From: Squalus acanthias
Lineage: Eukaryota
NCBI GenBank assembly: GCA_030390025.1
Contig: CM059431.1
Location: 104,286,001-104,350,000 of the forward strand
Direction of reading: 5' to 3'
Length of the DNA: 64,000 bases
Shown: in pieces, positions 1,034-61,426 of the stretch
Layout of the letters: each line of letters begins with the position of its first letter
Position numbering within the stretch: the first letter of the stretch is position 1
Program-made: the position numbers and the translations under genes
Notes under the pieces: model-generated
Database searches by the model: none
What the model saw: the letters and a program-made list of their open reading frames with translations, nothing else
Told to the model about the DNA's origin: nothing

Positions 1034-1292
1034 GTGTCATCTGTGGCTCAGTTGGTAGCACCCTCACCTCTGAGTCAGAAGGTTGTGGGTTCAAAGTCCC
1101 ACTCCAGAGACTTGAGCACAAAATTCTAGGCTGACACTTCCAGTGCAGTGCTGAGGGAGCGCCGCACTGTCGGAGGTGCTGTCTTTCGGATGAGATGTTA
1201 AACCAAATCCTCGTCTGCTCTCTCAGGTGGATGTAATTTATCCCACGGCACTGTTTCGAAGAAGAGCAGGTGCATTATCTCTGGTGTCCTGG
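1034..1292 (+). mobile_element. DeuSINE (SacSINE1-like), 5' half only
   Basis: tRNA-like head GTGGCTCAGTTGGTAGCA...GGTTCAA and core GTCTTTCGGATGAGATGTTAAACC; matches the full copy at 34649-35117; breaks off at 1292. Confidence 0.8.
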
Positions 1293-1318
1293 CATCCGAT
1301 CAAGCTGCGCAGCACGAG

Positions 1319-2401
1319 GTGTGCGTGCTTTACGGGGCGTGGTTACTGGGCGAGGGCCGCAGTAATTTGGAGGATTTAAAACAAGGTTTGGTCCCGTCCT
1401 GGATAAGTAACAAACACCTGCGGGCGCTCCACCCTTTTCAGAACGCATTAAGTCCGTGCCAGCTCAGGCTAGCTTCAGAAGCTTACCCAGTCCCCGTGGA
1501 CTGCGGACGATCAAACCATACTATTATGGGAATAGTATTACGCATGCCGGTTTTGGGCGACACAGCAAAGCCCGCCCCGGTGTATCGGGTAGAGAACATT
1601 GGTGTCATTCAGGGGGGAGCCCACATTCGTTACGCAGCGGTTCCACCTTACGTCATCCGCTGGGAGCAAACGATGACAGGTACAGATCTCTCTGGTTGTC
1701 GTGGCAGGGGAGCACACATAATACTGTGCCCCCAGCACTTGAATGCCTTTTTAACACCACAGTGCGGGTTCAGAACGACTGGCGCCAAGTCCATGAATTG
1801 CACCATGGAGGCAATGGCACAAGATCATGTGCCTCCGCAGGTAGCATACATCGGGGGTGGAACATATTGTGTTACCACTGCAGCGCAACACTACCAGCAT
1901 GGAAACCGTAGCCGGTGTCCGGTGAGTGACAGCAGTTTCTGTTTTAAACCCAGGGCGGAAGTTCAAGTAGCACAACAGCGAATTATCCCAATCCCTGAAC
2001 CATCCACTGTTCATCTCACAGTAAAAGAGAATTTCACCGACTTGCAGCGATTCGTCGCGCATTTTGGATACCTCATTCCCCCTCTCCCTGAACACCTCAC
2101 CAAACTTTTAAAAGCCGTCGCGGTGTCACAGAAACACTTTTACACATTAGAACAGAAAACTGTCGAAATAGGAACAGACATTCTGGATATAGTAGTTCCA
2201 CCGTGGTGGAATCTGTTCACTAATATTGAAGTGCCTTCATGGATCAGAATAGCCTCCCACATTTTAGTCGTATGCCAAGTTTTCATTGTAGTGTACCTAT
2301 TGGTCGTACATTGTAAAAGAGACAAGCGCCTCACCAAGCATGAAAACACGGGAGAGTGGCGAGAACGTTACGTGCGCGTGCACGATGAAAGCACCGTGTG
2401 A
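1319..2401 (+). CDS. env: C-terminal ~360 aa of a retroviral-like envelope/fusion glycoprotein (open frame, N-terminus deleted)
   Basis: Cys-rich ectodomain, heptad region, TM IASHILVVCQVFIVVYLLVV, short tail; about 20 aa differences from the minus-strand copy by eye. Confidence 0.8.
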   Translation: MCVLYGAWLLGEGRSNLEDLKQGLVPSWISNKHLRALHPFQNALSPCQLRLASEAYPVPVDCGRSNHTIMGIVLRMPVLGDTAKPAPVYRVENIGVIQGGAHIRYAAVPPYVIRWEQTMTGTDLSGCRGRGAHIILCPQHLNAFLTPQCGFRTTGAKSMNCTMEAMAQDHVPPQVAYIGGGTYCVTTAAQHYQHGNRSRCPVSDSSFCFKPRAEVQVAQQRIIPIPEPSTVHLTVKENFTDLQRFVAHFGYLIPPLPEHLTKLLKAVAVSQKHFYTLEQKTVEIGTDILDIVVPPWWNLFTNIEVPSWIRIASHILVVCQVFIVVYLLVVHCKRDKRLTKHENTGEWRERYVRVHDESTV

Positions 2402-2852
2402 TCGGAAAATGGCGTCACTCCCGCTCGCCACGTGCGCCGCGGAAGTTTGTACTCGATGATGATTTTCAGAGATTGTAAATACGTTGGGAACTCGACACGT
2501 TTTGAGAGTTGGTGTTGATTATTTTGGTGATGGTGTTACAGTTAAAAATGATTGTTTGGTTTTGGGTTTTGTTTTTCCTTTCCCTGAATAAAAGATGAAT
2601 ATACAGGTGATACGAGAGGCATCGGCCTGGTTACGCCGGGAAGGAAAACAAGTGGTGTAAGTTTAAGGGCAAATAATGCCTACGGTGATATAAAATGTAA
2701 TTTTCTTGGGAAATAAGGACGACACAGAGACCCTAGCTAGGTTAAATTTTATGGGATTAATTTGCTGGATTCGGAGAGAAATCGAGATAATATTGCTCAC
2801 CACTATGATTTTTGATACGATAAGCGGAGTTATTCGCATCAACAGGAGGGAC

Positions 2853-4510
2853 TGTAGAATTCGCAATATATCGCGATTTTATTAATAAGGAGAAAACACA
2901 GAGTTTCGTTCAAACAGCTTTTATTTCAGCAGAATGCTGGCAGGTTTAAAGTGGACACAAGCAGCCTGTAAAATGGCCGCCGCACCTCGTGACAGAACAT
3001 TCTAGACTTTTCAACAGGCAGACAAGATGGCGTTCCAATAAACATTTGTGCAAGATCGATTAAGATTCAGCACAGTGAAGATAATACACGAGACATTATG
3101 GGTTTGCAGTATACACATAGATACTGAAATCGGTCTCCCAGGTACAAAGGAAAGCCATTGTACCGAGTAATCAAGGGCCCATCCAAAAGACATTAATATG
3201 TAAAATCCCAACGACTCTACGATGAGAGAGCCGTTAGCAGGTAGTTTTACATTCAATTGGAAGCCCCAAACCCCTCCAGGGAGAACACCGACCGATTTAA
3301 CAATGGGAGAGCTATTAACAGGTACTCAGACATTTACGAGTAGCCCCGAAACCCATTAAGAACGGAGATCACCCATACAAGACATTTGAGCGCCAGATCT
3401 TAAACAAAAGAATGGACATTATAGTTGGGCGGGAAACGGAAGATTTTTGCACTATAATTGCAGGCTCCAAACCGTCCATCTTTCTCTTGCTGCTCTTATC
3501 ATCGTGGCTGCTCCTGTGCTCTTGTTTTTGTAACCTCGTGGCTGCTCCTGTGTACTCGTAGTTGGGCTCGCTCCTGCTTGCCTGTTGCCTCTTCTGAAAA
3601 GACTGTTGAACTTTCTGATCCGTTCGGATCTACCTCGTGTCGCGTAACGAAGACCTATATTGGTAACCGGTATCGGAACCAAAAGGCCCGAGATGAGATG
3701 AGATGAGATGAGATGAGAAGAGAGGAAGACCATATCCATCGCCACGGTCAGTAAATCCCGACCGCGCCTGTAGGTCGATTAGCCAAGTTTTCCTTGCCAG
3801 GAAGACTTCTTCGAACTTGCAAAGAAACATATCGTATCGATGATATCGACAACTGTGCTCGAAGAGTACCTGTTAAACCAACCAACACAGGTCTTCATCA
3901 CAGCAGACGTTCCAGCCTGCTAGCCGGAGCAGCAGAAGCAAGTAAACAAGCGGGACCAGGAGATCTCCTGACCGACACGTGGGTGCTGCGGTGAAAAACA
4001 TCCGAGCAGCTATTCGGAATTTCTCCGAGTTATCACGAGTGGTGAGCATGAGTCTCGAGATCCTACGAATCTAGTTTAGGATAGATATTGATAGGGGAGG
4101 GTTTAAGGATTAAGGATATTTGTAATGTGTGCCCCTATTTACTTTGTGCCGTTCGTTCCTCGTTTCCCTAAGATCGACTATATAACTGTTTGTAAGATTG
4201 TACTGTCATTAATCTGTGCTTATGACATGTATTTCATAATCTTAAGTATCATGCAATAAAGATTTTCCATTTCGTACCATTCAAACCGAGTCTACATGAG
4301 TTTCATCTCCATTACTGCTCTCGCATCTAAGTCCAGTGTCTAGAACCGTAAGGGAGAGTGATTCGAACCACTCACAGGTGTGTCTAGTGTTCCCAGACTG
4401 GCTGGAGACCAGAACAGGCAACGAGGCCTAGACCCGCACTGACATACAGGCTGCACAGAGCCGCGTGAATCTCACAGGCTGCGAGACACGCACGGTCAGA
4501 ATCCCTTACA
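2853..4510 (+). repeat. 3' LTR (1658 bp) of the truncated element
   Basis: TG..CA termini, follows the PPT, AATAAA at 4255-4260, (GAGAT)n at ~3690-3717, patchy homology to LTR 12698-14358. Confidence 0.85.
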
Positions 4511-4633
4511 TGTGCTAATATCTCCTGACGTGGCTCGATATCGAATTCTGTCTAATTACGCTCCTGTGAAGAGCCTTGGGATGTTTTACTCCATTAAAGG
4601 CGCTATATAAATGCAAGATGTTGTTGTTGTTGT
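4511..4633 (+). mobile_element. L2-type LINE 3' tail
   Basis: CTCCTGTGAAG..CCTTGGGA..AAAGGCGCTATATAAATGCAAG(TTG)n, as in the other L2 tails in the window. Confidence 0.75.
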
Positions 4634-4637
4634 TAAG

Positions 4638-6753
4638 TGTAAGGGGTTTCGGTCGTAGGTACTTGTGCGGGGTTAGGCCTTCGTTGCCTAATACTATTGC
4701 TTGCTCTGGTCTCCAGCCAGCCTTGTTGCAATAAGCACCTGTGAGTGGTTCGACCCACTCGCCCTTACGGTTCTAACACTGGACTTAGGTGCGAGAGCAG
4801 TAATGCAGAGAAAAACTCAAATAGACCCGGTTGAATAGTACGAAATGGAAATCTTTATTGCATAACGTCCAAAATCATGAAGTACATGTCATAGGCACAA
4901 ATTAATGACATTACAAGTATACATACATTCATAAAACTTGGTCTAGGGTAATGAGGAACGCACGGCACATCGTAAAAAGGGGAACACATTATATTTATCC
5001 TTAATAAAATCACCCTCCCCTATCAATACCTACACTAATCTAGATTTGTAGGATCGAGGAAACATGCTCACCACTCGTGATACTTCGGAGAATTTTAAAG
5101 TAAGGCACTCGGCTTGTTTCGCTGCAACACCTGACCGTCACGTGTTGGAAAGGGTCTCTGTACCCCACTTGTTTATCTTCTCTGATCCGGCTAGCAGGCT
5201 GGGCTCCCCGTTGTCATGAAGAACTCGACAGTGCTCGGGGCCCGGCTGTAGAACTCAAAGAAAAGTCTTTCTGGACCGACACCAGTTGTCGATAGAATTC
5301 GAAGAAAAGTCTTTGACCAGTTCATGCAGTAACCTGTAGAGTTCAAAAATGGTCTATATATTTTCGGGCGCGGTCGGGGTTTACTGACCGCGGCGGCACG
5401 TGGATTCTTCTTCTTCTCTTCTCATCTCGTCTCGTCTCATCTCTTCGGGCCTTCGGGTCCAGAACACCGTTTACCGACCCTCGGGATGGTGCACCCGGTC
5501 ACTGGCCTTCGTTGAGGCGGCTCGCTCCAAATTGAGCTCCACCCAACATAGGAGAATAAAAGTTCAGCCCGCGTCCAGAGTCAGTTCAAATGAATCAGCC
5601 CCGGGAGGATCAGAGGAATAAGAGAGTTCAGCAGCCAGCAGCAAGATAAGAGTCAAGAGCCAAGAGACCGATGGACATTTGTGCTGTGTTCCCTTATCTC
5701 CCACCCAAATCTTAATGTTCATCCTTTGTAAAATCTTGGCGCTCAAAATTCCCAGTATGGGGTGATTCTTTCCTTTAATGGGTTTCGGTAGCACCTTAAA
5801 CTGGCCAACTATCCGTTGGGCAACACGGTGGCATAGTGGTTAGCACTGGTGCCTCACAGCGCCAGGGACCCGCGTTCGAATCTGACCTCGGGTGACTGTC
5901 TGTGTGGAGTTTGCACATTCTCCCCGTGTCTGCGTGGGTTTCCTCCGGGTGCTCCGGTTTCCTCCCACAGTCCAAAAATGTGCGGGTTAGGTTGATTTGG
6001 CTATGATAAATTGACCCTTAGTGTTAGGGGGTGTTAAATATGTGGGGTTACGGGGATAGGATAGGATATGTTAGGGGGAATTAAATACGTGGGGTTACGG
6101 GGATAGGGTGGGATATGTGTCGGTGCAGGCTCGATGGGCCGAGATGGCCTCTATCTGTACTGTGGGGATTCTGTGTGAGAAAGCAGGGACAGGGTACTGG
6201 ATTTGGATGATCAGCCATGATCGTATTGAATGGTGGAGCAGGCTCGATGGGCCGAATCTCCTGCTCCTAGTTTCTATGTTTCTATGTAATGTTTTCCCCA
6301 TTGTCGAGCCGGCTAGGAGTCTCCCTGACTGGTTTTGGGGCCTCCTCGAATACTGACTTAATCACCTGAGAATGGCTCTCTCATTGTAGAGCCGTGGGGA
6401 ATTTGCGTATTGATGTATCTGGATGGGCCTTCGATTGCCCAGTACAATGGTCCTTACTTGTGCATGGAAAATGATTCCAGCACTTATCTCTTGCTATTTT
6501 GTCGAATGCAGACAGGTTGCATCCTGTCTTTATCAGTGTTTGCTGCGTATTAACCAATCTTATACTGAAATGTTTATTCGAACGCCATCTTGTCTGCCCA
6601 CTGTATTCTGGAAGCTTCTGCCACGATGCTCGGCGGCCATTTTACAGGCTTCTGTGTCCTTTATATCATGACAGCATTTCGTTGAAATAAAACTGATGAA
6701 ACGAATCTGCTTCTATCTCGTTATTTCGAATCGCGATAATTGCGAATTTTACA
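4638..6753 (-). repeat. 3' LTR (interrupted by a SINE at 5818-6287)
   Basis: Direct repeat of 12698-14358 with roughly 20-25 substitutions and one 16-bp indel by eye; minus-strand AATAAA at 4854-4859. Confidence 0.95.
5818..6287 (+). mobile_element. HE1-like V-SINE inserted in the 3' LTR
   Basis: tRNA head, V-domain TGTGTGGAGTTTGCACATTCTCCCCGTGTCTGCGTGGGTTTCCTCCGG, CR1-type tail (TTTCTATG)n; absent from the 5' LTR. Confidence 0.9.
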
Positions 6754-6765
6754 GCCCCTCCTGTT
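6754..6765 (-). promoter_or_regulatory. Polypurine tract
   Basis: Minus strand AACAGGAGGGGC directly before the LTR TGT. Confidence 0.8.
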
Positions 6766-7185
6766 GATGCGAATAACTCCGCTTATCGTATCAATTAAAA
6801 GTTGTGGTGAGCAAAATTATCCCGATTCTCCACATCCAAACACTCCCTTAACTTAAACTATCTAGGGTCTCCATGCCGTCCTCATTTCCCAGGGAAAATT
6901 ACATTATCTAACTTGGACAAAACCGTAGGCAGTATTGCCTTTTAAACTTACATCGCGTATACGTCTTCCAGGTGCAACAGGCCGATGCCTCTCGCACCAC
7001 CTGTATATGTATTTTATTATACAAGGAAAAAACTAATCAAACAACCATTTTAACAATACAAAAGTTAAAAATAATCAAACAACTCTTTTAAAATACAAAG
7101 TTCCAGACTTGGTTACATATCTACATAACTGAACAATCAATTACAAAACACACATGGTAAAATGGAGCGGCGTCATCCTGGCCGT

Positions 7186-9535
7186 TTACGCGGCGCTTTC
7201 CTCGTGCATGCGCACGTAACGTTCTCTCCACTCTCCTGTGTTCTCCTGCTTTGTGAGGCGCTTGCCTCTCTTGCAGTGCACGACCAATAGGTACACTACA
7301 ATTATTACTTGGCACACAACTAAAATGTGGGAGGCTATCCTGATCCATGAAGGCACTTCAATATTGGTGAACAGGTCCCACCACGGTGGGATTACTATGT
7401 CTAGAATTTCTGTCCCTATCTCGACAGTCTTTTGTTCTAGGGTGTAAAAATGTTTTGCGATACCGCGACGGCTTTCAAAAGCTTGGTGAGGTGTTCAGGG
7501 AGAGGGGGAATGATGTATCCGAAATGCGCGACGAATCGCTGCAAGTCGGTGAAATTCTCTTTTACTGTTAGATGAACAGTGGATGGTTCAGGGATCGGGA
7601 CAATTCGCTGTTGTGCCACTTGAACATCAGCCCTGGGTTTAAAACAGAAACTGCTGTCACTCACCGGACACCGGCTGCGGTTTCCATGCTGGTAGTGTTG
7701 CGCTGCAGTGTTAACGCAATATGTTCCACCCCCTATGTATGCCACCTGCGGAGGTACATGATCTTGTGTCATTGCTTCCATGGTGCAATTCATGGGCTTC
7801 GCACCAGCCATTCTGAACCCGCATTGTGGTGTTAAAAAGGCATTCAAGTGCTGGGGACACAGGATTATGTGTGCTCCCCGGCCACGACAACCTGAGAGAT
7901 CGGTACCTGTCATTGTTTGCTCCCAGCGGATGACGTAAGGTGGGACCGCTGCGTAGCGAATGTGGGCTCCCCCCTGAATGACACCAATGTTCTCCACCCG
8001 ATACACCGGGGCGGGCTTTGCTGTGCCGCCCAACACCGGCATACGTAACACTATACCCATGATGGTATGGTTTGACCGTCCGCAGTCCACGGGGACTGGG
8101 TATGCCTCTGAGGCTAGCCTGAGCTGGCACGGGCTTAATGCGTTCTGAAAAGGGTGGAGCGCCTGCAGGTGTTTGTTACTTATCCAGGACGGGACCAAAC
8201 CTTGTTTTAAATCCTCCAAATTACTGCGGCCCTCGCCCAGTAACCATGCCCCGTATAGTACGCACACCTCGTTCTGCGCAGCTTGATCGGATGCATTCCG
8301 ATCTTCCCTAATCAGGGCATTTACCGTTCTCGCATGCTTCTCCAGTTCTGCTATAATTTCCTTTAAGTGTAGCGTCATGGCCTGGTCCTCATGTAACTCA
8401 GACCCTACTACCTTGTTTTCGCTTGTGAGGATGCTTTTTAATTGTGTTTTTAAACCATTGATCTGGGTCTGCAGCTCCACGTTGTCTAGAGCGTTGACCA
8501 CAGATGTTCCTGTATTAAAGGCGGTGAACATATCGTTCACAATACCCCTTCTTTGTCTCCCCACCTGACCCAAAACTTCGTGTGGTGTGGTGTACAAGCT
8601 TGTCTTGTCAATCTCTGCAAAATCAAACTCGTAGAATTGTCTGAACATGTTTGTCAACAGGACCTGGTACAATTGTTCCGTCTCTTTGGGGCACCACTCT
8701 GGCAACCGCACCTCAGTGAGATTTAAAATCACCGAGGCCACCGCGTAATGTACCCCCTGAAATAGTATCTGGTCTGTTGGGACCAGTACCAAACCATTCC
8801 CGGGCCCCTTAGTGGTTTTAGGGCACCCTTCCTCCTGAGCCAAAACCACCGGAATCGTGGGCGGGCCTTGCGTGGGCGCGTGATGAGTTCAGTGGCGTTT
8901 ACCGGGATCGGGGAGTATGGAGCTCCGCACCCCCTGGTGCTGACATCCCACCTCATCCCTTTCCCGTTATCCTGCCACTGGTTTACAAAAAATATGGATA
9001 TACCCTTGGGGCAAACGTACTTCGATCCCCACATACAAATATATATTCCCTCATCCGGTTCCCACCATTTGTCCCAACAGACTTTCAATTGTCCGTTAGT
9101 CCCCGTAATTGTCCGATGGGTATTGTTACCCAATCGCTCCCACTCAACCGAGGAATTTCTCATATTCTTGCTCAATTTCCATAACCACCACCATCGGCTC
9201 AATGGGACCTTCCCATTGCATGTCAAACAAATCCTTTTGCCGACGGTGACGCTGATTCTGGGGGCAATGATCCTCACTCTGGGGCACAGTAAAGAAGTCT
9301 CTTTGTAGGCAAATCCCGATGCACTGGAGTATTCCATTGAATTCGTTCCCAGCCATCCCGGCCACCTTCCCTTGTGGAAATAAGTGGCGGTCTCCTCAGC
9401 CTTTCGCTTCCCGGTCCCATCCGTCACGATGGGGGCCGTGTCCCCGGAGCAACCAAACACAACGACATCCTTGGTGAGGCCCCGATAGGCCAATCCATAT
9501 CCGATCGCTGCGAGCACTATCAGAATCCGTTCCAT
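7186..9535 (-). pseudogene. env: env: signal peptide + Ig-like domain + T/P linker + furin-cleaved fusion glycoprotein + TM; two 1-nt frameshifts (~8878, ~7452)
   Basis: MERILIVLAAIGYGLA signal; C..W..DEGIYIC Ig motif; RQRR|GIVNDMFTAFNTGTSVV followed by a heptad repeat; the 3' frameshift is resolved by comparison with 1319-2401 and the frame ends EESAA*. Confidence 0.8.
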
Positions 9536-9547
9536 CTTTCCTGGTTC

Positions 9548-9570
9548 CTGTGATCAGATAAAATGATGAA
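9548..9570 (-). promoter_or_regulatory. Putative splice acceptor for env mRNA
   Basis: Minus strand TTCATCATTTTATCTGATCACAG|GAACCAGGAAAG-ATG. Confidence 0.55.
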
Positions 9571-9812
9571 GCCAGCCTCCCCAGAGTCTCTGGCTTTTGT
9601 GAAGGGTGAGTGGGTCCCTTGACCTCGTCTCACGTATAACGACATGTATGCTGGATAGACTTTAACTATTCCTATCTCTAAACTCCCATCATTTATCTTT
9701 TACTTTTAAAATTAAACTACCAACTTACCAAACTTACAAACTATGACTTAAACTTATAACTTATCCTTAACTTATAAACTGTACAGCGCTGCCCGTTCCC
9801 AGGGCGGCCTAC

Positions 9813-10892
9813 CTAAATTCTGCGAAGGCTGCCACAAGGTTTTCCCAACAGTGGGAGGGCACTGACCCCTTCCTTTGATCTGCCGCAGCCTGTCGCTGCT
9901 GCGCTGGGACTGGGATCTCCCTGGGCTGCCTTGACCTTGAACTTACGCCTGGGGGCATACGGGGGACTTGACCACGCCTTCCTGGGCTGGGGTGTCCGAC
10001 CTGACCTACGGAGGGCTACATTGGACAAGGTTTCCAGGGCCGACGGACCGGGTACCGAGACTTCCACCGTCGCGGCCTGTGGTCCCACCACAGCCGCTGG
10101 CTCCGTCTCCCCTGGCTCCGCCTCCCTGAACTCGGGATTTGCAGTTTCTGGTACCACCCTGCTTGGCCCAGTATGTGGTCCTCCACTCGCAATCCCTACC
10201 TCCCCCAAGGGCAAGACTTCCAGGGCTGACGGACCGGGTTCCGAGACTTCCACCGTCACGACCTGTGGTCCTACCACAGCCGCTGGCTCCGTCTCCCCTA
10301 GCTCCGCCCCCCTGGGCTCGGGACCTGCAGTTTCTGATTCCACCCTGTGTGGATCTCCACTCGCAATCCCTATCTCCCCTAAGCTTGAGTCGAGGACGAA
10401 CCTTTCGTCCTCCGATCTCAGCACCTCTCCGATCGGGTCACTATCTTGGTCGAGCTCCTCGAGCTCTTCCTCATCAGAATCCCAACCCCAAGAAAAGATC
10501 TTACACATTCCTAGAATGTCCTCTCCGCTCAAGCAGGCTGCTTTACCGGTCTGTGTGCCCTGCTGTCCTGCTTGGGGCTCAGAGACCCCACTCGCAGGAC
10601 TGGCCCCTCCCCTAAGACAGGCCACCGCCCCTGCTTGTGCATTCTGTGAAATCTCGCCTGCTGGAGGCTGCAGATTTCTATTCTGTTTTAAATCCTCATA
10701 CTCCCTGCTCCTGGCTACCCTGTAGGCTGCTTTTATGTCTCTAAGCTGCCCTTCTAGCCCGTCTACTTTCCCCATTAAACGGGCGTTCTCCTCCCGTAAG
10801 GCCTGCTCTTTTAACCTGGCCTCCTTACAGGAGACCCCCTCCTGTGCGTGTCTTTCAAGGGGACACAGGTAGGCAGGCTGCACCGGTTCCAG
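9813..10892 (-). CDS. ORF2 in the pol position: coiled coil + acidic/Pro-rich repeats, no enzymatic domain; in frame with gag after TGA-CTG
   Basis: Open ~359 codons; coiled coil similar to the Gag N-terminal region; ~60-aa tandem duplication; LRRSGR..P motif near the end. Confidence 0.6.
   Translation of the reverse strand: MEPVQPAYLCPLERHAQEGVSCKEARLKEQALREENARLMGKVDGLEGQLRDIKAAYRVARSREYEDLKQNRNLQPPAGEISQNAQAGAVACLRGGASPASGVSEPQAGQQGTQTGKAACLSGEDILGMCKIFSWGWDSDEEELEELDQDSDPIGEVLRSEDERFVLDSSLGEIGIASGDPHRVESETAGPEPRGAELGETEPAAVVGPQVVTVEVSEPGPSALEVLPLGEVGIASGGPHTGPSRVVPETANPEFREAEPGETEPAAVVGPQAATVEVSVPGPSALETLSNVALRRSGRTPQPRKAWSSPPYAPRRKFKVKAAQGDPSPSAAATGCGRSKEGVSALPLLGKPCGSLRRI
10027..10384 (-). 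repeat. Two-unit ~180-bp coding tandem duplication in ORF2
   Basis: LGE(I/V)GIASG...ETEPAAVVGPQ..TVEVS.PGPSALE occurs twice. Confidence 0.85.
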
Positions 10893-12693
10893 TCAGAAGT
10901 CTGGGTTGTATGGGGCTGTTGCTACCTCCCCGTGCGAAATCATAAGAGATCGCATGGCTCCTAACATTGATTCTATCGCATCGGGATGGATAGGCACACC
11001 AGCTCCTTTCTCAGAGACAGGCGCTTGGGTTCGGACTGCGGGAGCTTTTTCCCTGGAATCCTTCCAGGGATTCCTGCAGTTTTTACGCCAGTGACCTGTC
11101 TTTCCGCACCCGTAAAAAGCACCACTGGCCTGTGGGGCGCGGTTTCCCTCCTGATGCCACTCCTTTTGAGCCGGGGCTGCGGGCCGTACCTCATGCACCT
11201 TTCCCTTAAGGGGACACGCTCCCGTGCTCCTAGTGTTCCGATACCCTATCGTGAGTCGATTTAGGACCGACTCCTCTGTTGTGGCGGGGTTAGTGGGATC
11301 AAACCATGCTTTGGCCTGCTCCCTGACAGCTGGCAAACTGTTGGCTACTAAACACCTGAGCCAATGAGTTAAACCGGCACCGTCCAAATAATCGCGCCCT
11401 GGCGCACCTGGGCAGCTACGCTGGTATACTGGCCACAGCCTGTCGGCGAAAACCTTCGGGGGTTCTCCCTCCATCTCAACTGTCTGACCCAATCTAACGA
11501 ACGGACCTTCGTCATCCGCCCCTAACACTTCTAGGACCTCGTCCCTTAACTTCTCATAGGTATTATTTCCCCTCTTGCTCTCGACTGAGAGACACTGAAG
11601 GATCGAGCTATCTAACGAGAACAGCAACATTTTAGTCTTTTCCGCATCGTCGCAGCCATTAATTGCTGCGGTCTGTTCTACCTCCCTGAAGTGTACGGAA
11701 GGGTCGTCTGACTCAGACAGCTTCCGTACATGACTAATCATCGCTCTCAGCTGGTGTGAGCTGTGAGGCAACACAAGCTGGTTCAGGACATCCCCGTCTG
11801 CCCCATTGTCTCCGTTCGGGCCCCTCTTGTGACCTGTAAGCGGACACAACGGTCCCGGCTTTCGACACTACCTCTGGGGATTGTCCTACCTCGGGGACCT
11901 CCTCTTCTATTTCCACCACTTCCTTCCTTACCCAGGTTGCCGAATAGCTGGGTGGCGCAGAGGGCGCAGTGGCAAATACCTCCTCTGCTTTGTCTGGTAG
12001 GGATTTTGGGAATTCCCTACCCACCTGTGGCTGGTGTGCTGACGGGCTGATGAGGCACACCATGCCGTTTGCCTTATTCAGGGTCTCTCTTAGGCTCCCT
12101 ATCTCCTTCTGGCAAACACTGTGGTCGGCTCCCTCATGCTTATCTTCGAGGGCCATCTTATATGCCGCCCTAACTCCCTTCAAGCTTTCTTCTTGGGCTC
12201 TTATCTGGGTAGCTAGGCGAGCACACCGTTCTCTAATCCTACCCTCGTTTAACTTCGCTTCTGTGACCTGACACTCTAGTTAATCTATTTTAGCCTCATG
12301 GTGGTTGGCTACTATCTGGCGTTCCTGATGTAACGCATTCAAGGATGCGATGAGTTTCTGTCCTCCCGTGACCTTTTCCTCCATCTCAACTTCCAATTCC
12401 CTGATCTGAGCTGCCTGTGCTACAATGACCTGGTCCGAAAGTTGGACTTGCTTCTTGTAGCACATCAGCCAGACCGCTTTCTCTACCGACTTCTTATGCT
12501 CTTTACTGTCTGTCCATTTGATGGCTGCGTCTAGCGGACGCTTATCCATCAGCAGGTCACTTATCCACCTTTTGGTTAAGTTAACCTTCCCAAACACATA
12601 GTCGGCTACCCTCTCATCCATCACATTTCGCCTATTCACACCAGGGTCTAAAACATTACTCTCTCGCTGCCAGCCTCGTGCCGCGGTCGCCAT
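10893..12693 (-). pseudogene. gag: gag (coiled-coil N-terminus, capsid-like domain, degenerate CCHC knuckle); one in-frame TAA (12280-12282) and one frameshift (~11850-11900)
   Basis: ORFs 12280-12693 and 11734-12183 are in one frame; 10893-11849 has capsid-like DPSVHFREVE and EGEPPKVFADRL, and F-YGCGKTGHWRKNC. Confidence 0.8.
12675..12692 (-). promoter_or_regulatory. Putative primer-binding site overlapping the gag ATG
   Basis: LTR-CA GAAAA TGGCGACCGCGGCACGAG; the first 8 nt fit a tRNA-Arg(TCG)-type 3' end (from memory). Confidence 0.5.
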
Positions 12694-12697
12694 TTTC

Positions 12698-14358
12698 TGT
12701 AAGGGGTTTCGGTCGTAGGTGCTTGTGCGGGGTTAGGCCTTCGTTGCCTAATACTATTGCTTGCTCTGGTCTCCAGCCAGCCTTGTTGCAATAAGCACCT
12801 GTGAGTGGTTCGACCCACTCGCCCTTACGGTTCTAACACTGGACTTAGGTGCGAGAGCAGTAATGCAGAGAAAAACTCAAATAGACCTGGTTGAATAGTA
12901 CAAAATGGAAATCTTTATTGCATAACGTCCAAAATCATGAAGTACATGTCATAGGCACAAATTAATGACAGTACAAGTATACATACATTCATAAAACTTG
13001 GTCTAGGGTAATGAGGAACGCACGGCACATCGTAAAAAGGGGAACACATTATATTTATCCTTAATAAAATCACCCTCCCCTATCAATACCTACACTAATC
13101 TAGATTTGTAGGATCAAGGAAACATGCTCACCACTCGTGATACTTCGGAGAATTTTAAAGTAAGGCACTCGGCTTGTTTCGCTGCAACACCTGACCGTCA
13201 CGTGTTGGAAAGGGTCTCTGTACCCCACTTGGTTATCTTCTCTGATCCGGCTAGCAGGCTGGGCTCCCCGTTGTCATGAAGAACTCGACAGTGCTCGGGG
13301 CCCGGCTGTAGAACTCAAAGAAAAGTCTTTCTGGACCGACACCAGTTGTCGATAGAATTCGAAGAAAAGTCTTTGACCAGTTCATGCAGTAACCTGTAGA
13401 GTTCAAAAATGGTCTATATATTTTCGGGCGCAGACGGGGTTTACTGACCGCGGCGGCACGTGGATTCTTCTTCTTCTCTTCTCATCTCGTCTCGTCTCAT
13501 CTCTTCGGGCCTTCGGGTCCAGAACACCGTTTACCGACCCTCGGGATGGTGCACCCGGTCACTGGCCTTCGTTGAGGCGGCTCGCTCCAAATTGAGCTCC
13601 ACCCAACATAGGAGAATAAAAGTTCAGCCCGCGTCCAGAGTCAGTTCAAACGAATCAGCCCCGGGAGGATCAGAGGAATAAGAGAGTTCAGCAGCCAGCA
13701 GCAAGATAAGAGTCAAGAGCCAAGAGACCGATGGACATTTGTGCACTATAGTTATAGTGCTGTGTTCCCTTATCTCCCGCCCAAATCTTAATGTTCATCC
13801 TTTGTAAAATCTTGGCGCTCAAAATTCCCAGTATGGGGTGATTCTTTCCTTTAATGGGTTTCGGTAGCACCTTAAACTGGCCAACTATCCGTTAATGTTT
13901 TCCCCATTGTCGAACCAGCTAGGAGTCTCCCTGACTGGTTTTGGGGCCTCCTCGAATACTGACATAATCACCCGAGAATGGCTCTCTCATTGTAGAGCCG
14001 TGGGGAATTTGCGTATTGATGTATTTGGATGGGCCTTCGATTGCCCAGTACAATGGTCCTTACTTGTGCATGGAAAACGATTCCAGCACTTATCTCTTGC
14101 TATTGTGTCGAATGCAGACAGGTTGCATCCTGTCTTTATCAGTGTTTGCTGCGTATTAACCAATCTTATACTGAAATGTTTATTCGAACACCATCTTGTC
14201 TGCCCACTGTATTCTGGAAGCTTCTGCCACGATGCTCGGCAGCCATTTTACAGGCTTCTGTGACCTTTATATCATGACAGTATTTCGTTGAAATAAAACT
14301 GATGAAACGAATCTGCTTTATCTCGTTATTTCGAATCGCGATAATTGCGAATTTTACA
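12698..14358 (-). repeat. 5' LTR (1661 bp)
   Basis: TG..CA termini; direct repeat of 4638-6753. Confidence 0.95.
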
Positions 14359-15097
14359 TAAGAGCGACTGTTGTCTTTACGATGACAGGCCATACAATGG
14401 GAATCAAAAAGCCCAAAGCACATGTCAGTGAGCTTGTTCCTGTTGAGTCAAAAACAACGGGCATCGATGTTCTGTCAGTCCCAAATAGTTGGTTCCTTGC
14501 TGAATTATTTTTTTTCTCCTTCTTTTCTCTCTGCTGTTGTAAAGGAACTGATGCTGTACAGTGAACGCTGTAACCAAATGAGACATTGCCGTTACTCATT
14601 AACATGACAAAACGAGCCTGTGCTGTGAAAAAAATAACACGCAAGTCTTTAAAGCGGCTTCAATTGTGCCTTATAATGTATGCAGATCACACTGGGGTTT
14701 GATAGGGAAATCACAGGTTGCCTTACGTTAGTCGAGTCTGCCCTGCTCTAATTAGTTTAATTAGTGCTTTAGTCACTGTGCGGTAATCCATTATGACTGT
14801 GGTTAATTAACTCTGGAATAGATGAGTTTGCAATAATTACACCTAAAGTCACTTTGGGTGGATGTTGAATCTGGACAAGCCCATGATATTGGTCCCAAAT
14901 TCTTCAACTCCTTAATCAGCGCTTGGCAGCCATTGGCATTAAATACCGACACACGAATCTTCAATAAATGTTTCAGTTAGATTCAGCAGAAGCTGCACCC
15001 AAATTTTTCGAATGCTGTAGCAACGTCTTAATACTACCAAACATTAATGTTTCATTTAATGGAAAATAGTAGCTGGGCACTTTTCTGATTTTAAAAA

Positions 15098-17249: not shown

Positions 17250-19335
17250 TGTATTACACCACAATCTGTAACCTCATGGCCCAGCATATCCCTCACTCTA
17301 CCATTGCCATCAAGCCAGGGGACCAACCCTGGTTCAATAAGGAGTGTAGAAGAGCATGCCAGGAGCAGCACCAGGCGTACCTAAAAATGTGGTGCCAACC
17401 TGGGGAAGCTGCAACACAGGACTATATGCATGCTAAAAAGTGGAAGCAGCATGCTATAGACAGGGCTAAGTGATCCCACAATCAACGGATCAGATCAAAG
17501 CTCTGCAGTCCTGCCACATCCAGTCATGAATGGTGGTGGACCATTGAACAATTAACGGGAGGAGGAGGCTCCATGAATATCCCCATCCTCAATGATGGTG
17601 AAGCCCAGCACATGAGTGCAAAAGATGAGGCTGAAGCGTTTGCAAGCATCTTCAGCCAGAAGTGCCGAGTGGATGATCCATATCAGCCTCCTCCTGAGGT
17701 CCCCACCATCACAGAAGCCAGTCTTCAGCCAATTCGATTCACTCCACGTGATATTAAAAAACAGCTGAGCACACTGGAAACAGGAAAGGCTATGGGCCCC
17801 GACAATATCCCGGCTATCGTGCTGAAGACTTGTGCTCCAGAACTAGCTGCGCCTCTAACTAAGCTATTCCAGTACAGCTACAACACTGGCATCTATCTGA
17901 CAAAGTGGCAAACTGCCCAGGTATGTCCTGTCCACAAAAGGCAGGACAAATCCAATCCGGCCAATTACCGCCCCATCAGTCTACTCTCAATCATCAGCAA
18001 AGTGATGGAAGGTGTCATCGACAGTGCTATCAAGTGGCACTTACTCACCAATAACCTGCTCACTGATGCCCAGTTTGGGTTCTGGCAGGATCACTCGGCT
18101 CCTGACCTCATTACAGCATTGGTCCAAACATGGACAAAGGAGCTGAATTCCAGAGGTGAGGTGAGAGTGACTGCCCTTGACATCAAAGCAGCATTTGAAC
18201 GAGTGTGGCATCAAGGAGCCCTAGTAAAACTGAAGTCAATGGGAATCGGGGGGAAAATGCTCCACTGGCTGGAGTCATACCTAGCACAAAGGAAGATGGT
18301 TGTGGTGGTTGGAGGTCAAGCATCGCAGCCCCAGGACATCGCTGCAGGAGTTCCTCAGTGCAGTGTCCTAGGCCCAACCATCTTCAGCTGCTTCATCAAT
18401 GACCTTCTGTCCAACATAAGGTCAGAAATGGGGATGTTCGCTGATGACTGCACAGTGTTCAGTGCCATTCACAACTCCACAGATAATGAAGCAGTCCATG
18501 CCCGCATGTAACAAGACCTGGACAACATTCAGGATTGGGCTGATAAGTGGCAGGTAACATTTGCGCCACACAAGTGCCAGGCAATGACTATCTCCAACAA
18601 GCGAGTGTCTAACCACCTCCCCTTGACAGTCAATGGCATTACCATCGCCGACTCCCCCTCTATCAATATCCTGGGGGGTCAACATTGACCAGAGACTTAA
18701 CTGAACCAGCCACATAAATACTGCGGCAACAAGAACAGGTCAGAGGCTAGGTATTCTGCAGCGAGTGTCTCACCTCCTGACTCCCAAAGCCTTTCCACCA
18801 TCTACAAGGCACAAGTAAGGAGTGTGATGGAATACTCTCCACTTGCCTGGATGAGTGCAGCTCCAACAACACTCAAGAAGCTTGACACCATCCAGGACAA
18901 ACCAGCCCGCTTGATTGGCACCCCATCCACCACCTTAAACATTCACTCCCTCCACCACTGGCGTACCGTGGCTGCAGTGTGTACCACCTACAAGATGCAC
19001 TGCAGCAACTCACCAAGGCTTCTTTGGCAGCACCTCCCAAACCCGTGACCTCTTCCACCTAGAAGGACAAGGGCAGCAGGCGCATGGGAACACTACCATC
19101 TCCAATTCCCCTCCAAGTCACACACCATCCTGACTTGGAAGTATTTCGCCGACCCTTCATCGTCGCTGGGTGAAAATCCTGGAACTCCCTCCCTAACAGC
19201 ACTGTGGGAATACCTTCACCACACAGACTGCAGCAGTTCAAGAAGGAGGCTCATCACCACCTTCTCAAGGGCAATTAGGGATGGGCAATAAATGCTGGCC
19301 TTGCCAGCGACGCCCACATCCCATGAACAAATTTT
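17250..19335 (+). mobile_element. 5'-truncated CR1-group LINE with decayed RT ORF2
   Basis: AMGPDNI, NYRPISLLS, QFGF, GVPQCSVLGP and FADD motifs (17573-18511); stops and frameshifts. Confidence 0.9.
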
Positions 19336-60111: not shown

Positions 60112-60531
60112 GGGCAACACGGTGGCATAGTGGTTAGCACTGGTGCCTCACAGCGCCAGAGACCCGGGTTCGAATCTGACCTCGGGTGACTGTCTGTGTG
60201 GAGTTTGCACATTCTCCCCGTGTCTGCGTGGGTTTCCTCCGGGTGCTCCGGTTTCCTCCCACTGTCCAAAAATGTGCGGGTTAGGTTGATTTGGCTATGA
60301 TAAATTGACCCTTAGTGTTAGGGGGGGATTAAATATGTGGGGTTATGGGGATAGGATGGGATATGTTAGGGGGAATTAAATACGTGGGGTTACGGGGGTT
60401 GGGTGGGATATGTGTACTGTGGGGATTAAAGCAGGGACAGGGTACTGGATTTGAATGATCAGCCATGATCGTATTGAATGGTGGTGCAGGCTCGACGGGC
60501 CGAATGGCCTACTCCTGCTCCTAGATTCTAT
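60112..60531 (+). mobile_element. HE1-like V-SINE (tail continues at 61427-61453)
   Basis: Near-identical to 5818-6287. Confidence 0.9.
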
Positions 60532-61426
60532 GGGGTAAAAATTCACTTGGTTGCGCCGCCTGTTAGCGCCTTAAGAGGGCGCTAATGGGGCGCAAAGCCG
60601 CTAACGCCCGGGCGCAGCGATGTTTGCGCCGCTCGAGAACTTAACTTGAGATTGTGCGGCGGCGCTAAAACTTACCGCTGCGACCACCTGCGCGCGCAGA
60701 TTGTGACGTCATTCCATGGTGCAACGCCCTTGGGGCGCCCCGTAGCGGAAATTGAGTGGCGCCCCCTGCCTTACCGCCTGGCGCTTCCAACGACCAGAAG
60801 ACTGGAACGCTATCAATCGCTGTGGGGCTGGGGGGGGGGCGCTATTTAAAGGGGGCCTCTTCCTGTCTTTTATTGTTGGTGGCATTTTTGAACTACGCAT
60901 TCTGAGAGAGAGAGGGAGAGACTTCTGGAGAGATTCAACGTTGTGTGAAGGAGTTTTGGGTACTGAGCAGCACTTTGCAGGTTCATTTTGATTTGCCATT
61001 CCTTGTATCGATTTAGCAGAGACCGTGGGAGCTGCACTCTGACCTCTTTGCCTGGTGCTCTCCATTGTTCTTTCCAGCACATTTGATGTGCAAGTCTCTC
61101 CAGGCCGAGATTCAAGGCAGCAATGAACAGGATGTGGATGGAAAGCAAGATTAACCATCCCCTTTAAGAACTGGCCCGTGCCATTGTGTGTGTGTTCCAT
61201 TGCTGACTGACATTACATGAGCTTCGCCAGCGCTCCGAGTTAGCGCCTCACTGCTCGGCCTTTGCGCCTTAAGAGAGGTGTGCAGCGCCTGCTTTAACGC
61301 TCCACTCACCTCCCGGGGCGGTAAAAGTGAAGTTTCCCGTCAGTGCCGATAATTAGCGCCAGGCGCTAATATTTGCGTCCGGACGATATTTGCGCCCCAA
61401 ATGGGGCGCGACCTAATTTTTACCCC
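60532..61426. mobile_element. Non-autonomous Harbinger-like element, copy 2, inserted in the SINE tail
   Basis: Perfect TIR GGGGTAAAAATT, 3-bp TSD TAT. Confidence 0.9.

Follow-up and report, generated by a model that had tools for sequence, protein, structure and literature searches.

An F-type retroviral envelope with a predicted immunoglobulin-like head in an endogenous retrovirus of Squalus acanthias

The 64,000-nucleotide stretch of Squalus acanthias DNA analysed here (the window) carries, on its minus strand, a decayed endogenous retrovirus (ERV) whose env gene belongs to a family in which an Ig-like N-terminal part and a fusion part are encoded by one gene. Our preferred reading, which we regard as reasonably probable, is that Env is a receptor-gripping type I membrane protein of an SnRV-like, class III-related ERV, made of a signal peptide, a diverged Ig-fold module, a Pro/Thr stalk and a complete class Ib fusion module. 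Natural uninterrupted copies encode it as one protein of 783 residues, which the predicted cut at RQRR would divide into 330 and 453 residues. In the window, env runs from an ATG at 9535 to 7186, and its parts lie as follows.

9485..9535, minus strand: env start and predicted signal peptide (residues 1 to ~17), placed by hydropathy
8891..9478, minus strand: Env N-terminal module (residues ~20-215, 7 Cys), with the Ig-like core at ~9268-9008
8826..8890, minus strand: Pro/Thr-rich linker, holding the first frameshift of this copy
8559..8825, minus strand: F2-equivalent segment, with which the F-like module begins; model residue 245 is paired with F residue 26-38
8547..8558, minus strand: furin-type site RQRR, read from the sequence
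7350..8546, minus strand: F1-equivalent ectodomain with putative fusion peptide, HRA helices, Cys-rich beta domains and HRB, holding the second frameshift
7186..7349, minus strand: transmembrane helix and short cytoplasmic tail, with the stop at 7188-7186

The window gene is broken by two frameshifts, the first near 8862-8880 (codon ~225) within the linker and the second near 7452-7457 (codon ~694) before the transmembrane helix. Its first frame holds the hydrophobic signal, a Cys strand (9253-9218), a Trp strand (9193-9182) and DEGIYIC from 9055; the second begins its F-like part at CPKTTKGP (8825) and continues through RQRR, the heptad helices and the Cys-rich beta region; the third contains the transmembrane segment and the end of the gene. 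The first-pass annotation, made from the letters of the window, had already named the signal peptide and Ig-like motifs as well as the furin site, heptad helices, Cys-rich region and transmembrane segment, all of which we located, and its figure of ~450 residues for the post-cleavage subunit agrees with the uninterrupted copy. Its proposal that one restored base near 8878 would repair the protein is right about the linker break, but the second frameshift, on which it was silent, needs repair as well. The motif that it gave as VSVTVGK reads ISVTVGK in the window, and the hydrophobic peptide that it described after RQRR is present but only mildly hydrophobic (best 19-residue Kyte-Doolittle value 0.77). 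Nor did it mention the loss of pol or the precedents in lokiretrovirus and foamy Env and in the Ig-type receptor-binding domains of gamma-type Env.

Sister copies show what an unbroken gene looks like. Searches of the 3.7-Gb genome returned 3642 candidates at the DNA level, 40 of which were scored, and 10312 at the protein level, with the best 88 scored; these are candidates and not copy numbers. For frame counts 44 loci were read and four duplicates dropped, leaving 40 distinct copies. Residues 160-260, which lead from the Ig part to the fusion part, form one stop-free frame in 35 of the 40, and codons 205-245 are free of frameshifts in 37, the two copies broken there besides that of the window being broken at different codons. 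The frame is open from the signal peptide to beyond residue 760 in 5 of the 40, while a hand count found a stop-free 789-codon frame in 24 of the best-scoring 88 genome matches, best scorers being biased to intact copies. Public sequencing runs, which we guessed to be RNA, tell the same story: in all four, the greater part of the contig depth departs from the window copy through an indel at each of the two breaks. Since most sister copies and run contigs lack those breaks, we take the Ig and fusion parts to be one protein and the breaks of the window to be private decay. Both comparisons had been proposed in the first-pass annotation, and two separately kept ORFs are not what most of the copies contain. 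All folds and searches described below used natural uninterrupted copies and not the window copy.

Structure prediction strongly supports the assignment of the fusion module to the F type, class Ib, as supposed from the sequence at first. The whole Env of a natural copy was modelled with AlphaFold2 from 42 relatives, and 10-residue blocks of pLDDT are mostly 80–95 over residues 241-300 and 431-650 and low for the head. All PDB matches listed by Foldseek are paramyxo- or pneumovirus F proteins, the best being hPIV3 F (E 1.9e-11), and F proteins likewise make up 50 of the best 50 VIA-align rows. The model aligns with Langya F at Z 12.9 (rmsd 14.4, 376 residues aligned, model 245-705 against F 29-476) and with Nipah F at Z 12.2 (rmsd 5.1 over 292 residues); several VIA-align matches have a high rmsd to F over the whole model. 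These alignments begin at model residue 243-245, opposite the point where mature F2 starts, so that the ~220 residues on the N-terminal side appear to be an addition to a complete F. Predicted viral structures that match Env are lispivirus F, baculovirus F, walleye-virus Env and feline foamy Env. In profile searches the best PDB match of the family is foamy Env 8OZH (E 4.9e-5), and SnRV Env is matched with a probability of 95.4% (E 1.8e-8). Single-sequence searches of the PDB with the window-family Env, its relative P0036 and SnRV Env gave nothing meaningful, and Pfam found no fusion family on the window-family Env; in relatives it gives weak matches to Baculo_F (E 0.0011) and Fusion_gly (E 0.036).

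The order of elements in Env (basic cleavage site, fusion peptide, HRA, Cys-rich region, HRB, transmembrane segment) is that of class Ib proteins, and in the predicted model the fold match extends from the start of F2 through domains I-III, the core that these proteins share. Structural work divides class I fusogens into Ia, with orthoretroviral Env, and Ib, with F, spike and foamy Env; both F and foamy Env are in the class Ib group as treated in PMC11468914. The contrast drawn initially between a long post-cleavage subunit and the short TM of orthoretroviruses needs a caveat.

The head probably has an Ig fold, judging by several weak lines that agree, none of which passes a cut-off; to this extent the Ig-like domain of the first-pass annotation stands. 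Folded alone with 12 sequences, it gave a model with a mean pLDDT of 47.7, core blocks at 55–70 and a ~50-residue stretch without resolved structure. Against 48,161 chains the best VIA-align match has Z 6.7 (rmsd 2.6 over 88 residues), a range (Z <8) in which a match may reflect a common beta arrangement; 49 of the 50 best rows are titled as Ig-superfamily or antibody-containing, with T-cell receptor, antibody, CD8, titin, NCAM and TREM domains at the top. Foldseek rows are mostly antibody-containing entries (best E 0.014, none at E <= 0.001). Pfam Ig_3 is found on 9 of 12 members, with a best E of 0.0025 and a best score of 17 bits against a 30-bit cut-off, below the curated threshold. In the Atlas search all ten family-bearing matches fall in one clan, that of Ig, with scores of 0.84–0.85, which serves as a lead only, since a third of shuffled proteins also reach ten agreeing families. 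The B-strand Cys, the C-strand Trp and the F-strand D/E-x-G-x-Y-x-C are kept across subfamilies that are 49–75% identical, and besides these the head has extra Cys and a Trp-rich pattern unlike the canonical V-set.

Whatever its fold, the head is selected as a protein. Pairs of sequences give dN/dS values of 0.12–0.48 over the whole head (13 of 15 unsaturated), 0.07–0.28 over its Ig core (10 of 15) and 0.10 in the F module (one pair), as expected under purifying selection.

Among named proteins, those nearest to this Env are from a skate and from sharks. What stands in front of the F module varies among related Envs. Three of 13 related Envs have only a signal peptide, 19–22 residues, before it; two shark Envs carry a different head with 8 Cys; SnRV has a head of 426 residues; and the rest have heads with hints of Ig. 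P0014, from Chiloscyllium, is titled 'Ig-like domain-containing' by UniRef, P0036 has a V-set match on its head (E 0.045), and the head of frog P0020 has Ig-clan Atlas matches at 0.87–0.89. A search for a host donor of the V-set-like P0036 head returned only HEPACAM at E 7, which is no evidence. The profile of the window head family taken alone scores other families' heads at 4.1 bits or less, within the shuffle range; with three sequences of the second shark family added it also recognises P0014 (15.5 bits, 0 of 100 shuffles) and, at the margin, P0020. A profile comparison of the two shark head families aligned F-module residues instead of heads. Several public gene models (P0004, P0005, P0012 and P0037) fuse env pieces to Niban-like, zinc-finger, cadherin and F-box genes and are probably annotation chimeras. 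The same genome holds a second, distant Env family (L051:121-2472, 45% identical to Chiloscyllium P0014) with an open 784-codon frame and a Cys-containing head of its own. The F-like part of SnRV Env, which follows a head with 14 Cys, aligns with the F-like module of the family at L060:6407-9535.

In a tree of the F module (11 rows, two fragments omitted for their length, four long branches and two starred nodes) the window-family Env groups with a shark Env whose Cys-rich head is of another kind (100/99), and a headless Env is the partner of the V-set-headed one (90/91). This distribution fits swapping, gain or loss of heads, in a number of events that the tree does not allow one to count. 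A wider scheme can be tentatively sketched, although we find it somewhat doubtful as a whole: in SnRV-like retroviruses of sharks, rays and frogs the F core would be a plug-in scaffold to which host-derived Ig heads were repeatedly attached as swappable receptor binders, in a coronavirus-S1-like design. Because Loki, foamy, SnRV and walleye-virus Envs are all F-like, the F type might even be the ancestral retroviral envelope rather than an oddity of foamy viruses and Loki. That heads vary independently of the F core bears on the origin of the retroviral envelope and on the gain of receptor specificity, and since a single genome offers several subfamilies and candidate copies by the thousand, gain, loss and selection of heads can be tested by comparison alone.

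It is more difficult to say where the head came from, and we give an origin from a host Ig gene an even chance. With single sequences or shallow profiles as queries, the N-terminal family found nothing in the PDB, and 51 matches in 1.84 billion representatives have no cellular Ig protein among them. Capture from a host, as first proposed, is on these grounds unproven. The same absence of a host homolog would be expected if the head were an old viral beta-sandwich that was inherited in the Env lineage or that resembles Ig only superficially, the Cys/Trp/YxC motif having drawn the prediction that way. Such an explanation also accommodates the sub-threshold Pfam and structure scores, the extra Cys and Trp-rich pattern, the gap in the model and the failure of the family profile to recognise clearly the heads of other families. 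However, the heads of distant relatives (P0036, P0014, P0020) give Ig hints independently, and the conservation of canonical B-, C- and F-strand motifs across subfamilies speaks against a superficial likeness. We consider a head of non-host descent distinctly unlikely, and a diverged Ig-fold module remains our preferred description.

By its position, its linker and precedent, the head probably binds a receptor. By analogy with F and foamy Env we infer the following course of events: furin would cut at RQRR, leaving a surface subunit that consists of the Ig module and the F2-like segment and a membrane subunit that holds the rest; Env would form a trimer; the Ig module would bind a host surface molecule; and the F core would refold, insert the fusion peptide and zip HRA with HRB, which would lead to membrane fusion. 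Such a layout resembles that of coronaviruses, where S1 lies N-terminal to S2 as the Ig module precedes the F core. The head might instead have an Ig fold and not be the entry receptor binder, acting as an immune decoy or modulator, as a shield or as a folding aid of the prefusion trimer, with attachment through the F core or a glycan. Headless relatives and the four bare Loki Envs examined in the published supplement (PMC7947760) indicate that the core can work without a head, and the Atlas neighbours of the head include, as a lead only, a poxviral soluble interferon receptor. Heads that are swappable receptor modules would, however, lead one to expect headless relatives just as much, and a head tethered to the spike, not secreted, fits poorly with a decoy. 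Its position and Pro/Thr linker also match those of known receptor-binding domains (Hotzel 2024, bioRxiv 2024.03.17.585361). A head with some task other than receptor binding thus seems unlikely to us, and we retain the receptor-binding module.

The element around env is a dead, pol-deleted copy of a high-copy ERV. Its remaining parts are these.

12698..14358, minus strand: 5' LTR, 1661 bp, TG...CA, from LTR comparison
4638..6753, minus strand: 3' LTR, split by an insertion that came later (5818-6286), from LTR comparison
12675..12692, minus strand: primer-binding site, which shares bases with the first gag ATG, 5 bases after the LTR
10893..12693, minus strand: gag, with a coiled-coil N-terminal part, a capsid-like part and one CCHC knuckle, in three frames in this copy
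9813..10892, minus strand: pol remnant, in which protease, RT, RNase H and integrase are missing and the low-complexity Pol tail is kept

A 4-bp target duplication, TAAG, flanks the element (4634-4637 and 14359-14362). [quoted passage not shown] The 469-bp insertion in the 3' LTR is repeated near 60112-60532, has a short tandem tail and looks like a shark SINE; it had misled us to an LTR length of 467 bp. An apparent 3-bp duplication likewise suggested a Troyka element, which the true LTR ends and the 4-bp duplication ruled out. The primer-binding site of the window matches genomic tRNA-Arg(TCG) at 12 of 18 positions, and in sister copies the match is 18 of 18 in seven of nine; the variant shared by the window and L037 may match another arginine tRNA. 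In several sister copies gag is one frame of 611–653 codons. In sisters that bear pol, an in-frame TGA precedes the protease, RT, tether, RNase H and integrase. SnRV has an arginine primer and read-through. With pol taken from sister copies, the family thus has the LTRs, target duplication, tRNA primer site, gag-pol-env order and PR-RT-tether-RNase H-IN series of an ERV.

Some ~3.7 kb of sister pol is replaced in the window by ~320 bp that resemble the gag coiled coil (35% over 43 aa, pairwise E 1.3e-5). This short gag-like piece stands in place of pol (window 10609-10929) in 18 of the nearest 30 copies, eight have an integrase tail and four have neither. Since the pol-less junction is shared so widely, these copies were evidently mobilised in trans. 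Non-autonomous copies that keep gag and env are unusual. Mobilisation in trans, together with the broken state of most copies, could mean that Env no longer serves infection, either because the element spreads as a germ-cell retrotransposon with env hitch-hiking or because the host has co-opted a copy. Against this stand the low dN/dS between subfamilies in both modules and the fact that pol-less copies kept env despite the loss of pol, as well as open frames that are scattered over many young copies and not confined to one conserved locus. We regard a non-infectious role as very improbable and continue with an Env of infection.

Further observations concern the surroundings. The low-complexity Pol tail contains an internal duplication of ~180 bp (10023-10383, 83% identity). 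On the plus strand (1202-4421), tail to tail with the element, is a truncated and more diverged relative that consists of a 3' env part, with a 399-codon frame at 1202-2401, and a diverged LTR, at 70–82% identity. Fragments of a CR1/L2-type LINE reverse transcriptase were recognised by eye at 17474-19291, with further copies across the window. Rfam gave nothing within 4400-14600.

The best label for the element is an SnRV-like or class III-like ERV, with membership not settled by the RT tree. For that tree 45 rows were chosen from 115 matches, one match being skipped for a merged envelope and no Loki or foamy reference being present; the SnRV row was identified by its match to a sequence in the Loki supplement (PMC7947760). 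The element groups with retroviruses against gypsy (100/100), outside the class I group (100/98), and shares an open fork with SnRV and with ERV-L-like, frog and coelacanth elements. Its RT motif is LPQG, which matches RTs of the SnRV, ERV-L, foamy and class I type, as against CPFG, TPFG or LPFG in the Loki RTs seen in the part of the supplement examined. A lokiretrovirus is disfavoured by this motif, by the headless Loki Envs and by published absence from cartilaginous fish, Loki having been found in none of six such genomes screened (PMC7947760), one of them the source of P0014, a member of the window Env family; the RT tree, having no Loki rows, does not bear on this. An F-like Env and a tether plus RNase H are not diagnostic of lokiretroviruses since SnRV and foamy viruses have them too. 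Evidence against a foamy virus comes from the zinc knuckle in Gag, from the extra module being N-terminal and from an F2-like segment of 93 residues without an insert, and Spumaretrovirinae was rejected. Foamy Gag is described as having no zinc fingers (PMC12789967).

F-type Envs and Ig-type receptor domains have each been published, and their combination was not found in the literature searched, nor was any account that treats the SnRV Env as F-like (the scope of this search did not take in Calcraft et al. 2024, Cell, which may cover fish retroviral Envs). SnRV and SnRV-clade ERVs are treated in PMC12193657 and shark lineage I CmiERVs in PMC4422223. Like SnRV, the family has a dual RNase H Pol, an LPQG-type RT (34% identity over RT-RNase H), gag and pol of sister copies in one frame split by a stop, and a homologous F-like Env module behind a long N-terminal extension; it differs in that the 426-residue SnRV head gave no Ig match and in its 1.66-kb LTR, and no accessory ORFs were noticed. 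SnRV is filed among the orthoretroviruses, and the window family appears to place a class Ib Env close to it, in a group of vertebrate retroviruses that is large and young.

Two published retroviral Envs are already F-like, that of Loki (PMC7947760) and that of foamy viruses (PMC11468914). Lokiretroviruses share with the window family an F-like Env with a furin site that starts from the same GP-x-GLV motif, a tether plus RNase H, and a coiled-coil region in or near gag, and differ in that all four Loki Envs examined in the supplement are without an N-terminal domain. Foamy gp130 (PDB 8OZH, 8RM0, 8RM1; PMC11468914) is a class Ib fusion core in a retrovirus as well, but its receptor-binding domain has a fold of its own and is inserted between the subunits, whereas the module of the window family is N-terminal and Ig-like. 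The paramyxo-, pneumo- and baculovirus F proteins and the F-type Env of errantiviruses share the fold and the order of F2, cleavage site, fusion peptide, HRA, Cys-rich domains, HRB and transmembrane segment, at only 6–15% identity. We know of no added N-terminal Ig module in any of them, and paramyxoviruses have a separate attachment protein.

Ig-type heads are known from gamma-type Env, where IgV-type receptor-binding domains were described (RBD-C of MLV, FeLV and HERV-Pb1, and a SIRP-derived domain; Hotzel, bioRxiv 2024.03.17.585361), and a crocodilian ERV4 has captured nectin3 (PMC4299795), so that retroviruses are on record as having taken up host Ig domains. As in our family, the gamma-type proteins link an N-terminal Ig-fold module through a proline-rich linker to the fusion machinery; however, that machinery is class Ia, and the nectin3 capture replaces env altogether. 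The SIRP and nectin cases also keep clear host-gene identity, and the window family's head does not. N-terminal extensions on F-like cores are reported for coronaviruses and aquatic herpesviruses (PMC12583693), and F has been viewed as a scaffold that accepts receptor-binding modules at its N terminus (Fernandez 2024, PMC11468914). Beside these systems, the N-terminal Ig-type head of the shark family would be a third way to add a likely receptor module to an F core.
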